Below, piece by piece: positions 11,552 to 12,417 of a DNA stretch of 21,333 nucleotides; the stretch's first letter is position 1, and every line of letters starts with the position of its first letter. The DNA comes from a virus. Its lineage: Duplodnaviria > Heunggongvirae > Uroviricota > Caudoviricetes. Both the position numbers and the translations under genes were made by a program. The stretch lies in IMG/VR virus record IMGVR_UViG_2684622617_000023; one strand, 5' to 3'. The notes beneath the pieces are model-generated. The model had not been told where the DNA came from, made no database searches, and saw nothing but the letters and a program-made list of their open reading frames with translations.

Positions 11552-12340
11552 TTACCCCCTGAAGCCTGGCGGGATCGCACTGTCCGGAAACGAGACGGTG
11601 TTAATCTGTCGGAGCAACGTCTCTGGCCGAACACCTTTCGGCGCGAACAAGCCCTGGTATTCATTGGCGATGCTGTGTCGAATCACCTGCTCAGGTGAAA
11701 AACCCTGCTGGCGGAATTTTTCCAGCTCCCGTATCGCCCCGTTAGCGCCCTGCTCCGTTCGAATCGGTTTTCGCAATGCCTGCCTGAACTGAACCCACTC
11801 ATGCCAGAGTGTTTCCGGCAACCAGTCAGGCAGCTCGATAGCCTCCGGTTCGAATTTTTTAGACGCTCGTTTTTGGCGAGGGGGATTTAGGGGGAGATAA
11901 GTATTTATATCTTCCTCTTTCTCTTCCTCTGGTAACGCTTTTTGATCCGTTTTTGTAACGCTGGCAGCGTTACCTTTTCGTTTCAGTTCTCGTATTTTTG
12001 TTACTCTCTCGTTTGTAACCGCCCGTTTTTTAGAGCTTTTCCCGTTATGGCGCTCAAAGTTAGGAAGCGACAACACACCATTAGTTTCGACCAGCCATCC
12101 AACCTGAATTAACGCATCAGCAAAACCAGCCATAAAAGTGATGCGATCTATTGCACTTTTTGTAACGCCGCGAGCGTTACACTCTGCGTTACCGTCTATC
12201 ATTTGTTGATCCGCCCATGCCCAGAAGCGAATGACTTTCCCTAATGCGGCATCTGGATCAATATTCAGAATCTCAGCAAGCCTGAATATTTCCGGCTTAT
12301 CCGGCGTAATAACTTCGAGCTTTATCCAGTTTGAAGCCAT
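11552..12340 (-). CDS. ydaU: Lambda O-like replication initiator
   Basis: 262 aa with an AAGGTG Shine-Dalgarno; charged low-complexity linker (...KRKGNAASVTKTDQKALPEEEKEED...); 21-bp palindromes lie inside the gene, as the origin does in lambda O. Confidence 0.8.
   Translation of the reverse strand: MASNWIKLEVITPDKPEIFRLAEILNIDPDAALGKVIRFWAWADQQMIDGNAECNARGVTKSAIDRITFMAGFADALIQVGWLVETNGVLSLPNFERHNGKSSKKRAVTNERVTKIRELKRKGNAASVTKTDQKALPEEEKEEDINTYLPLNPPRQKRASKKFEPEAIELPDWLPETLWHEWVQFRQALRKPIRTEQGANGAIRELEKFRQQGFSPEQVIRHSIANEYQGLFAPKGVRPETLLRQINTVSFPDSAIPPGFRG
11954..11974. repeat. 21-bp palindrome TGTAACGC-N5-GCGTTAC(c), copy 1, inside the ydaU linker-coding region (candidate iteron/operator)
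   Basis: TGTAACGCTGGCAGCGTTACC; flanked by half-sites GGTAACGC (11931-11938) and TGTAACC (12014-12020) and by AT-rich / polypyrimidine tracts (11895-11930, 11975-12010). Confidence 0.55.
12161..12181. repeat. 21-bp palindrome TGTAACGC-N5-GCGTTACA, copy 2, inside the ydaU 5' coding region
   Basis: TGTAACGCCGCGAGCGTTACA, perfect 8-bp arms; an extra half-site GCGTTACC at 12186-12192. Confidence 0.55.
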
Positions 12341-12352
12341 TTGTTTTCACCT

Positions 12353-12373
12353 TGTAACGCTCGCAGCGTTACA
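12353..12373. repeat. 21-bp palindrome TGTAACGC-N5-GCGTTACA, copy 3, in the ydaT-ydaU intergenic region next to the ydaU ribosome-binding site
   Basis: TGTAACGCTCGCAGCGTTACA, perfect 8-bp arms, 13-33 nt upstream of the ydaU ATG. A second inverted repeat TACCGAAC-N6-GTTCGGTA lies at 12383-12404. Confidence 0.55.
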
Positions 12374-12417
12374 TTTAACTGATACCGAACAAAACAGTTC
12401 GGTACGATTAATTTCAA

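Follow-up and report, generated by a model that had tools for sequence, protein, structure and literature searches.

Palindromes and half-sites of the motif GTAACGC lie within and just upstream of the replication-initiator gene of a Rac-like prophage; comparison with relatives suggests that they are probably binding sites for the product of that same gene and together constitute the prophage's replication origin. The sites are real and non-random, and they are selected at the DNA level, phased, co-varying across two clusters, and tied to the N-terminal domain of the initiator. A preliminary description of this DNA had drawn a parallel with the origin of phage lambda, and that reading holds up well, based on positional conservation, ~11-bp phasing, codon bias, and half-sites that change together in both clusters. 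Throughout, "the window" denotes the whole stretch of DNA that was analysed (21,333 bp).

The initiator gene and its neighbours

Two genes of the window are central to the analysis:

11552..12340, minus strand: replication-initiator gene, 262 aa (WP_001304174.1; RefSeq "hypothetical protein")
10799..11545, minus strand: ydaV, encoding a DnaC/IstB-like AAA+ ATPase (Pfam IstB_IS21, 2e-20; Bac_DnaA, 2e-8)

The initiator gene takes the place of ydaU in a Rac-like prophage at ttcA (100% identical to E. coli E2863), and its allele is present in 679 of 5,426 complete genomes. It is likely to share a transcript with ydaS and ydaT. Directly downstream lies ydaV (annotated as ydaV, ATP-binding protein), the product of which is presumed to be a helicase loader that works with the initiator.

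The gene had initially been called ydaU, which is accurate for only part of its product. The alignment to K-12 YdaU covers only aa 139-262 of the initiator (124 aa, 79% identity), and the N-terminal domains of the two proteins are unrelated according to hhalign (probability 0.1%). The initiator consists of an N-terminal domain of ~115 aa, a linker, and a C-terminal domain that is common to K-12 YdaU and resembles DnaT. Pfam assigned no family to the protein at E ≤ 0.01, including DUF1376 and Phage_rep_O, and a PDB sequence-profile search with the initiator returned nothing. A full-length match was identified to PHROG 2509 (E = 3.2e-88; aa 1-262 aligned to profile positions 1-277 of 277), whose functional label, "replication initiation protein," is an annotation. 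NCBIfam gave a weak match to the DnaT tail (NF002770; aa 244-262, E = 0.004), at 16.9 bits against a cut-off of 201; relatives carry PF17948, a DnaT-like single-stranded-DNA-binding domain, and several phage homologues are annotated as "primosomal protein I." In the structure model, the N-terminal domain appears winged-helix-like, and we regard it as a putative site-specific DNA binder.

Phages that infect Klebsiella, Salmonella, Pseudomonas, Xanthomonas, and Ralstonia carry the same replication module, with an initiator gene that still goes by "hypothetical" or "primosomal protein I" in annotations. In a 41-kb circular phage-like replicon of Pusillimonas, a member of this initiator family and a DnaC-like ATPase are the only initiator-type genes. 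Our search of a plasmid collection identified two records with the module, both of them phage-like circles, and no small plasmid in which the module would serve as an independent replicon.

A palindrome repeated in and upstream of the gene

Searching the whole window for TGTAACGC-N5-GCGTTACA with up to three mismatches returned three sites, at 11954-11974 (copy 1), 12161-12181 (copy 2), and 12353-12373 (copy 3), exactly where the preliminary description had placed them. Dinucleotide shuffles contained a mean of 0.06 such sites, and none of 100 shuffles reached three or more; chance is therefore ruled out as the source of the repeats. All copies share the 5-nt spacer originally reported, but the perfect 8-bp arms reported with it do not extend to copy 1 (TGTAACGC TGGCA GCGTTACC), the perfect arms of which are 7 bp long. 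The true repeated unit is GTAACGC-N5-GCGTTAC, with GTAACGC as the half-site; by chance, ~0.02 copies of this unit would be expected in a genome such as the 5.36-Mb E2863 chromosome.

Exact GTAACGC half-sites number 12 across the window compared with 1.85 expected. Eight of them fall within 441 bp (11932-12372), six in the palindromes and two as orphans (11932-11938 and 12186-12192). Degenerate GTAAC/GTTAC cores are located at 12014-12022 (TGTAACCGC) and 11999-12006 (TGTTACTC). Copies 2 and 3 lie 207 and 399 bp from copy 1, which gives spacings of 207 and 192 bp between adjacent copies. The earlier picture of three copies ~200 bp apart is incomplete: the copies are the full-palindrome members of two intragenic half-site clusters and an upstream site. 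We count the ~200-bp distance between sites as a point against an origin.

12353..12373, no strand: copy 3, the upstream palindrome, TGTAACGC-TCGCA-GCGTTACA, at gene nt -33..-13
12161..12192, no strand: cluster A, palindrome copy 2 (12161-12181, gene nt 160-180) and an orphan half-site
11932..12022, no strand: cluster B, at gene nt 319-409 in the linker-coding region, a palindrome with exact and degenerate half-sites

Copy 3 lies between ydaT and the initiator gene, which are 77 bp apart, and immediately precedes the Shine-Dalgarno sequence AAGGTGA, in agreement with its earlier placement beside the ribosome-binding site. In cluster A, the orphan half-site GCGTTAC (12186-12192) corresponds to gene nt 149-155; the extra half-site of this cluster was added by a 12-nt tandem duplication, and the peptide encoded here is D-G-N-A-E-C-N-A-R-G-V-T. 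Cluster B contains one full palindrome (copy 1, gene nt 367-387), one exact half-site (11932-11938, gene nt 403-409), and two degenerate half-sites. Based on the AlphaFold model, aa 50-56, in the part encoded by cluster A, are in a loop with pLDDT < 50, and cluster B codes for a low-confidence linker.

Conservation of site positions

We compared 54 non-redundant homologues that range from Enterobacteria to Planctomycetes and Verrucomicrobia, with loci of 41-68% GC. Within gene nt 130-450, GTAACG/CGTTAC had a density of 15.1 per kb; outside that interval the density was 0.42 per kb, which is ~36-fold lower and about the chance level. Half-sites of the relatives fall in two clusters, A at nt ~149-198 and B at nt ~335-430, and most of 80 loci from genomes of different species have GTAACG at gene nt 149/152.

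A scan of viral contigs that started from the motif gave a concordant picture. A homologue of the N-terminal domain was found in 100 of 120 motif stretches, and in those stretches all but 2 of 167 palindromes lay within gene nt -60..460. Almost all palindromes were in three peaks, at nt -60..-21 (16 palindromes), 140-179, and 340-399. The upstream palindrome is present in only a subset of relatives, whereas the intragenic clusters A and B are nearly universal. Among enterobacterial relatives, it is always ~10-30 nt ahead of the ATG, and its arms are constant whereas its 5-nt spacer varies (TGCGA, TTACA, TGTGA, TCACA, and others).

Selection, phasing, and co-variation of half-sites

Within cluster B of the relatives, the sites are read in several frames: for GTAACG, 12 occurrences are in frame 0 and 61 in frame 1, and for CGTTAC, frames 1 and 2 account for 37 and 34, respectively. 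Within cluster A, synonymous codons are biased towards the motif, high-GC hosts included; Gly is encoded by GGT in 36 of 37 cases (background 17%) and Val by GTT in 34 of 37 (background 31%). The multiple frames of cluster B and the codon bias of cluster A argue that selection acts on these sites as DNA and not as peptide. Third codon positions in 25 distinct close E. coli relatives, an underpowered sample, varied at 1 of 12 positions in motifs and 36 of 138 outside (p = 0.3), not a significant deficit of change in the motifs.

Across homologues, half-sites are spaced in ~11-bp steps; the distances between their centres are 14 (inverted), 25, and 47 bp, and 11-12, 22-23, and 33 bp for direct repeats. 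All of these distances except 47 bp were recorded for cluster B. About half of the half-sites in the family have no inverted partner.

Some divergent lineages have a different half-site: GTCACG in L145, L164, and L158, GTTGCG in L149, and GTCCGC in epsilon15 and L154. Each of these genes carries its variant in both of its clusters, apart from that of L158, in which every copy lies at nt 328-372.

A purine/AT tract and a C-tract beyond cluster B

Two further elements follow cluster B:

11895..11929, minus strand: candidate DNA-unwinding element, sense strand GAGGAAGAGAAAGAGGAAGA-TATAAATACTTATC, consisting of a run of purines only and then an AT-rich stretch
11880..11894, minus strand: C-tract motif, sense strand CCCCCTAAATCCCCC, shortly after the AT-rich stretch

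The tract beside copy 1 that had been remarked on as AT-rich and polypyrimidine is real and strand-asymmetric; it directly adjoins cluster B on the downstream side, and the 30- and 40-bp windows with the lowest duplex stability in 10799-12840 lie in it. Relative to the whole window it is only moderately unstable (within the least stable 1.7-4.4%), and its AT-rich stretch is ~15 bp long. Purine runs of at least 15 nt are present at nt 360-520 in 38 of 54 representatives compared with five elsewhere in 185 kb, and relatives carry (GAGAA)n at this position. Over the 15 codons that follow the last half-site, 85 of 91 Arg codons are AGA/AGG, compared with 151 of 881 elsewhere.

In 13 of 54 representatives, a C4-8-N1-6-C4-8 motif is present within gene nt 407-499 and absent from the rest of their loci. 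Its reading frame differs among representatives, and K-12 ydaU carries it too; the C-tract may be part of the origin.

Alternative explanations for the repeats

The sites could be operators only, at which the initiator or another regulator represses the initiator-ydaV operon, perhaps by looping over ~200 bp, with the origin located elsewhere. Palindromic full sites are expected of dimeric repressors, the ribosome-binding site is immediately next to copy 3, the 192- and 207-bp spacings resemble those of looping operators, and inverted iterons of iteron plasmids serve in autorepression. We nevertheless consider this explanation unlikely. A consensus scan of 11800-12900 identified no sigma-70-like promoter, although the scan was strict and weak promoters may escape it; the upstream copy, unlike the intragenic clusters, is restricted to a subset of relatives; direct-repeat half-sites 11-12 bp apart are typical of iterons; and an operator needs no purine/AT tract, whereas the one that always follows cluster B is selected at the DNA level. 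The same scan gave four terminator-like matches, palindrome copy 1 itself among them, which were not convincing. Operator function is compatible with an origin as an added role, and copy 3 is a possible operator or feedback site, perhaps in addition to its part in the origin.

The sites could also be bound by a neighbouring regulator (RacR-like, YdaS, or YdaT) or by a host factor. The region is an immunity/early operon, YdaT is a CII-like DNA binder, and RacR and YdaS had been among the proteins suggested for binding tests in the preliminary description. These candidates fared poorly: within 1.5 kb of the motif in 44 motif-bearing non-redundant relatives, genes for RacR-like proteins were found in 5, for YdaS in 1, and for YdaT in 6, and on these counts we exclude all three as binders. 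YdaV and the C-terminal domain likewise accompany the motif in only 9 and 7 of the 44, respectively. The motif accompanies the N-terminal domain in phages that lack these neighbours, and in the genomes compared this domain is the sole constant partner of the motif. With respect to host factors, no DnaA box was identified at ≤1 mismatch in 11400-12500. Half-sites differ between phages of the same or related hosts (GTAACGC in E. coli and GTCCGCA in Salmonella epsilon15; GTAACGC and GTCACGC within the Burkholderiales), which argues against a conserved host factor. Binding by any of these proteins in place of the initiator is very improbable.

Equally poor are the prospects of an account in which the palindromes act as mRNA hairpins in processing, stability, or anti-termination, similar to lambda boxB. 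Each palindrome could form a stem of 7-8 bp with a 5-nt loop, and all of them lie in a transcribed unit, copy 3 in the 5' leader. However, the half-sites that have no inverted partner occur as direct repeats 11-12 bp apart; the arms are invariant, with no compensatory changes; and when the word does change, every site in the locus, unpaired ones included, takes the same new word. Loop sequences vary, and an Rfam scan of the whole window gave no match in the palindrome region.

Finally, we can dismiss as exceedingly improbable that the repeats are due to chance or are a by-product of a needed peptide repeat, G-N-A-x-x-V-T: although copies 1 and 2 share a frame in the window (G/C-N-A-x-x-V-T-K) and G50 is invariant in a six-sequence alignment, copy 3 is non-coding, homologous cluster B sites are in other frames (e.g. 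V-T-Q-K-V-T-P-T-A-L in TL-2011b), synonymous positions are fixed despite opposing host codon bias, and the model places the peptides in loop and linker regions of low confidence.

A model for initiation

For the reading of the sites as an origin bound by the initiator itself, we infer binding, melting, loader recruitment, and origin firing by analogy with lambda. After derepression, a promoter on the ydaS side would drive transcription of ydaS, ydaT, the initiator gene, and ydaV. Dimers of the initiator would bind GTAACGC-N5-GCGTTAC through their winged-helix-like N-terminal domains, and more subunits would fill the phased half-sites in clusters B (11932-12022) and A (12161-12192). The resulting multi-protein complex, comparable to the lambda O-some, would distort the DNA and open the purine-strand/AT-rich tract at 11895-11929, and the DnaT-like C-terminal domain would then recruit the YdaV (DnaC-like) loader together with host DnaB. 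Sites ~200 bp to either side, namely the upstream palindrome (12353-12373) and perhaps cluster A, might loop into the same complex; alternatively, they might provide negative feedback as a roadblock or operator, similar to the inverted iterons of iteron plasmids. What speaks against an origin is that cluster B is not a tight array of at least four iterons as in lambda.

In the literature, we found no description of a GTAACGC origin and no experiment on binding or origin activity. The layout is conserved in phages of several bacterial phyla and apparently has not yet been described. As a tentative extension, about which we have more doubt than confidence, these loci may represent an undescribed, widespread class of phage origins, from Enterobacteria to Planctomycetes and Verrucomicrobia. 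In such a class, the half-site (GTAACGC or a lineage variant) would be written into the initiator coding sequence at two fixed places ~200 bp apart, dictating the peptides of a surface loop and the linker, and would be followed by a (GAGAA)n tract and C5-TTA-C5; both clusters, joined in enterics by a third site upstream, would be bridged by the initiator, so that a ~200-bp loop and not a tandem iteron array would drive both melting and self-feedback.

For a module common in E. coli, Shiga-toxin-producing strains included, the analysis provides a specific candidate origin and a recognition sequence, both of which lend themselves to testing. A known origin would aid the prediction of cryptic prophages that can replicate after induction, as well as the building of phage-derived replicons. 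The locus also offers a natural example of a protein-binding code laid over coding sequence, in which the sites fix synonymous codons and even loop amino acids, and the specificity switches (GTAACGC, GTCACGC, GTTGCGC, and GTCCGCA) could help to work out how a new DNA-binding domain recognizes its sites.

Comparison with known replication systems

The tail of the initiator's C-terminal domain weakly matches the DnaT C-terminus, far below the curated cut-off. DnaT differs in having neither a sequence-specific origin-binding N-terminal domain nor associated repeats.

Iteron plasmids (P1 RepA incC/incA, pSC101, F, and R6K) are compared here on the basis of general knowledge of those plasmids. They have an inverted iteron copy upstream of rep, and the present locus has a palindrome at nt -33..-13 that is kept in enterobacterial relatives. 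In contrast to these plasmids, the initiator has no Rep_3-type homology, the sites are inside coding sequence, and a promoter under the upstream palindrome was not found.

The K-12 Rac prophage shares the ttcA position, the flanking ydaT and ydaV, a C-terminal region of 124 aa with 79% identity, and the C-tract motif. However, its YdaU has a DUF1376-type N-terminal domain, to which the N-terminal domain of our initiator has no detectable homology, and in the corresponding parts of its gene (nt 148-233 and 392-452) it carries the repeat GATGTT(C/G)AA in place of GTAACGC. An active origin, the genetically defined oriJ, has been reported for the Rac prophage (PMC3945230), and oriJ may correspond to the GATGTT(C/G)AA repeats of K-12. 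The existence of two Rac replication-region alleles would be explained by the exchange of an origin-binding domain and its sites as one cassette.

A close parallel in layout is lambda ori/O, along with the origins of other lambdoid phages. In lambda, the initiator gene contains its own origin within the sequence for the interdomain linker (iterons at O gene nt 349-433), and the probable origin here has the same placement (cluster B at nt 319-409). Both have dyad-symmetric sites of ~19 bp with a purine-rich AT tract immediately downstream, a helicase-loader gene next, and a module that follows cro-like and cII-like genes; a DnaA box is absent in lambda too. The differences concern the components. 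The initiator has no sequence similarity to lambda O (BLASTP E = 0.26) and no Phage_rep_O domain; its C-terminal domain, unlike that of O, resembles DnaT; and its half-site is GTAACGC, whereas that of lambda is TCCCTC. Lambda has four tandem iterons, whereas the present locus has two clusters ~200 bp apart and an upstream copy, with mixed inverted and direct half-sites. The modular logic is nonetheless the same in both systems: the N-terminal domain and the repeats swap together, while the C-terminal domain and the loader stay.

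Identity of the initiator gene

The window, 100% identical to E. coli E2863 sequence, represents a Rac-like prophage at ttcA. Downstream of a cro-like ydaS, its minus strand encodes, in order:

12418-12840, minus strand, CII-like ydaT
11552-12340, minus strand, initiator gene (262 aa)
10799-11545, minus strand, DnaC/IstB-like ydaV

The preliminary description called the initiator gene ydaU. We ruled out K-12 ydaU as its identity because a Pfam search of the protein returned no match, K-12 YdaU aligns only to aa 139-262 (79% identity), and no relationship was detected between the N-terminal part and the DUF1376-type N-domain of YdaU. 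The RefSeq product name is "hypothetical protein"; phrog_2509, "replication initiation protein," matches the whole protein (E = 3e-88). Below, the N-domain is the N-terminal ~115 aa, for which fold assignment is weak, and the C-domain is the C-terminal half shared with K-12 YdaU. This allele, scored as a match over ≥80% of a 1.4-kb query, is present in approximately 679 of 5,426 complete E. coli genomes, whereas K-12-type genomes match the query in the flanks and C-terminal half only.

The ydaS-like gene (12837-13163) is a 108-aa open reading frame by mechanical prediction; its upstream part is probably not translated, since RefSeq annotates only an 84-aa protein (255 nt). Rfam identified the RalA antitoxin sRNA of the RalR/RalA toxin-antitoxin pair at 19599-19777 (minus strand) and, at the other prophage end, two tRNA genes (828-901 and 1005-1077, both minus strand).

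Palindromes and half-sites in the window

Across the whole 21,333-bp window, TGTAACGC-N5-GCGTTACA occurs at exactly three sites when ≤3 mismatches are allowed. These sites and the partial copies near them are as follows:

11954-11974, palindrome, copy 1
12161-12181, palindrome, copy 2
12353-12373, palindrome, copy 3
11932-11938, orphan GTAACGC half-site
12186-12192, orphan GTAACGC half-site
12014-12022, degenerate GTAAC/GTTAC core
11999-12006, degenerate GTAAC/GTTAC core

Shuffled windows held a mean of 0.06 palindromes, and 0 of 100 shuffles reached three. All three palindromes of the preliminary description are thereby confirmed, but its perfect 8-bp arms fail for copy 1, which ends in C and so has perfect arms of 7 bp. 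The half-site GTAACGC, the unit that repeats, is present 12 times in the window (1.85 expected); eight copies, including both orphans, lie inside 11932-12372. The palindromes are the full-dyad members of three site groups: clusters A and B inside the initiator gene, and a group upstream of it.

A 12-nt tandem duplication (GCGTTACACTCT / GCGTTACCGTCT, 12174-12197) gives cluster A an extra half-site and, compared with TL-2011b-type proteins, inserts 4 aa (ECNA) into the product; some other relatives have longer insertions at the same place, with still more half-sites.

Two other repeats lie upstream of the initiator gene. At 12383-12404, between ydaT and that gene, is a perfect 8-bp inverted repeat, TACCGAAC-N6-GTTCGGTA. 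Its left arm is GCCGGAT in close relatives, where pairing survives only via G-U on the sense (minus) strand, a possible sign that the operon mRNA forms a hairpin here. An imperfect inverted repeat, TTGATTGAAATTAATCG (minus strand, ~12405-12421), lies at the ydaT end; it resembles a TTGATT-N6-AATCAA site reported for the CII-like YdaT of CP-933P.

Conservation of the site groups

Homologues of the N-domain occur in phages of Escherichia (TL-2011b), Klebsiella, Xanthomonas (CP2), Pseudomonas (PAN70), Salmonella (epsilon15), Ralstonia, and Vibrio, and in prophages across Proteobacteria, Planctomycetes, and Verrucomicrobia. We compared 54 representatives that were <90% identical in the first 48 residues, from loci of 41-68% GC. 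GTAACG/CGTTAC reached 15.1 per kb at gene nt 130-450 (counted from the start codon) vs. 0.42 per kb, approximately chance level, in the other 168 kb. Within the gene, cluster A spans nt ~149-198 and cluster B nt ~335-430; the third group precedes the start codon by 10-60 nt and is found chiefly in enterobacterial members, with conserved arms and a variable 5-nt spacer. Half-sites share the consensus (G)GTAACGC(T). Centers of inverted pairs are 14 (the N5 palindrome), 25, or 47 bp apart, and those of direct pairs 11-12, 22-23, or 33 bp; these steps approximate one helical turn, so the sites would share one helix face.

In five closely related E. coli viral contigs (L036, L039, L042, L043, and L066), the initiator frame ends at aa 112-126, within the cluster B repeats, and similarity persists downstream of the early stop, probably because the prophages are decaying and the frame has shifted.

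The candidate binder

In an unbiased count, the most repeated hexamer was contained in GGTAACGC for 41 of the 54 representatives. Divergent lineages use a different half-site word, which switches in both clusters of one gene together: GTCACG in loci L145 and L164 (and likewise in L158, but with all copies at nt 328-372), GTTGCG in L149, and GTCCGC in epsilon15 and L154 (nt 55-101 and 334-369). A motif-first search of viral contigs for exact GTAACGC-N5-GCGTTAC returned 120 stretches, 100 with an N-domain homologue. These 100 hold 167 palindromes, all but 2 within gene nt -60 to 460 and nearly all at nt -60 to -21, 140-179, or 340-399.

Only the N-domain consistently accompanies the motif. Within 1.5 kb, YdaV is present in 9 and the window's C-domain in 7 of 44 motif-bearing representatives. 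RacR and YdaS, candidate binders in the preliminary description, are excluded along with YdaT, being found at this distance in 5 (RacR-like repressor), 1, and 6 of the 44, respectively. Binding by a host factor is argued against by half-sites that differ among phages of one host group.

Constraint at the DNA level

Sequence comparison indicates that the constraint acts on the DNA itself and not on the encoded peptide or an RNA. Cluster B sites fall in differing reading frames among relatives, encoding K-G-N-A-A-S-V-T-K in the window vs. V-T-Q-K-V-T-P-T-A-L in TL-2011b. In cluster A, the Gly codon is GGT in 36 of 37 representatives (17% elsewhere; 24 of 25 loci with ≥55% GC) and the Val codon is GTT in 34 of 37 (31% elsewhere). 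Among 25 distinct close relatives, a small sample, third codon positions varied in 1 of 12 cases within motifs and 36 of 138 outside them, a difference short of significance (p = 0.3). One palindrome copy in the window is non-coding, and AlphaFold places cluster A (aa 50-56) in a low-confidence loop and cluster B in a low-confidence linker. That the palindromes act as RNA hairpins is argued against by the roughly half of all half-sites that have no inverted partner, and by an Rfam search of the whole window that gave no match at these sites.

Two tracts follow the sites:

11895-11929, sense strand GAGGAAGAGAAAGAGGAAGATATAAATACTTATC, purine-only tract then AT-rich stretch, directly after cluster B
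11880-11894, sense strand CCCCCTAAATCCCCC, C-tract of two C-runs split by a few bases, just after the purine/AT tract

With 30- and 40-bp windows alike, the lowest duplex stability of the entire ydaT-to-ydaV region falls in the first, which is (GAGAA)n in relatives. A purine run of ≥15 nt occupies this position in 38 of 54 representatives, vs. 5 runs elsewhere in 185 kb, and over the 15 codons after the last half-site Arg is AGA/AGG in 85 of 91 cases (151 of 881 elsewhere); the purine tract is thus also kept at the DNA level. The C-run motif occurs at gene nt 407-499 in 13 of 54 related loci and in K-12 ydaU; the rest of the 185 kb that the related loci cover lacks it. Its confinement to one place while read in different frames (PPLPP, NPLTPL, DPPTPQ) suggests a DNA-level element.

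A probable origin inside the initiator gene

Based on these comparisons, we consider it probable that the sites form a replication origin inside the initiator gene. N-domain dimers would bind the palindromes, with further subunits filling the phased half-sites; the complex would open the purine/AT tract, and the DnaT-like C-domain would recruit YdaV and host DnaB. Some 200 bp separates the upstream palindrome, and likewise cluster A, from the next group; both may be drawn into this complex by looping or may exert negative feedback. A search for promoter consensus sequences at copy 3 found none, so the possible role of this copy as a classical operator is not supported. Among the papers searched, none describes this origin.

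Comparison with known replicons

In the circular phage-like replicon of Pusillimonas sp. T7-7 (L289, NC_015459.1, 41,205 bp), a member of the initiator family and a DnaC-like ATPase are the only initiator-type genes. Listed as a plasmid and typed by MOB-suite as rep_cluster_1580, NC_015459.1 carries integrase, head, tail, and lysis genes and amounts to a complete genome of a lambdoid-type phage.

K-12 Rac has a reportedly active origin, oriJ (PMC3945230). K-12 Rac shares the C-domain, C-tract, and ydaV with the window but has another, unrelated N-domain and another word, GATGTT(C/G)AA, in the same two-cluster layout at nt 148-233 and 392-452 (gene nt 148, 233, 392, 426, and 437, inverted at 452; 3452-3767 of the K-12 Rac ydaU locus, L001). 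These repeats are a candidate sequence-level definition of oriJ. The differences between K-12 and the window read as a cassette-like exchange of the origin-binding domain and its sites, as is known among lambdoid O genes.

The lambda-like origin suggested in the preliminary description gains good comparative support: in lambda, as in the window, sites in the initiator gene are followed by a purine-rich AT tract and then the loader gene. However, lambda has an array of four dyad-symmetric iterons (O gene nt 349-433), and cluster B of the window is sparse by comparison. The probable origin departs from the lambda model in its split three-group layout and in its conservation across several phyla.
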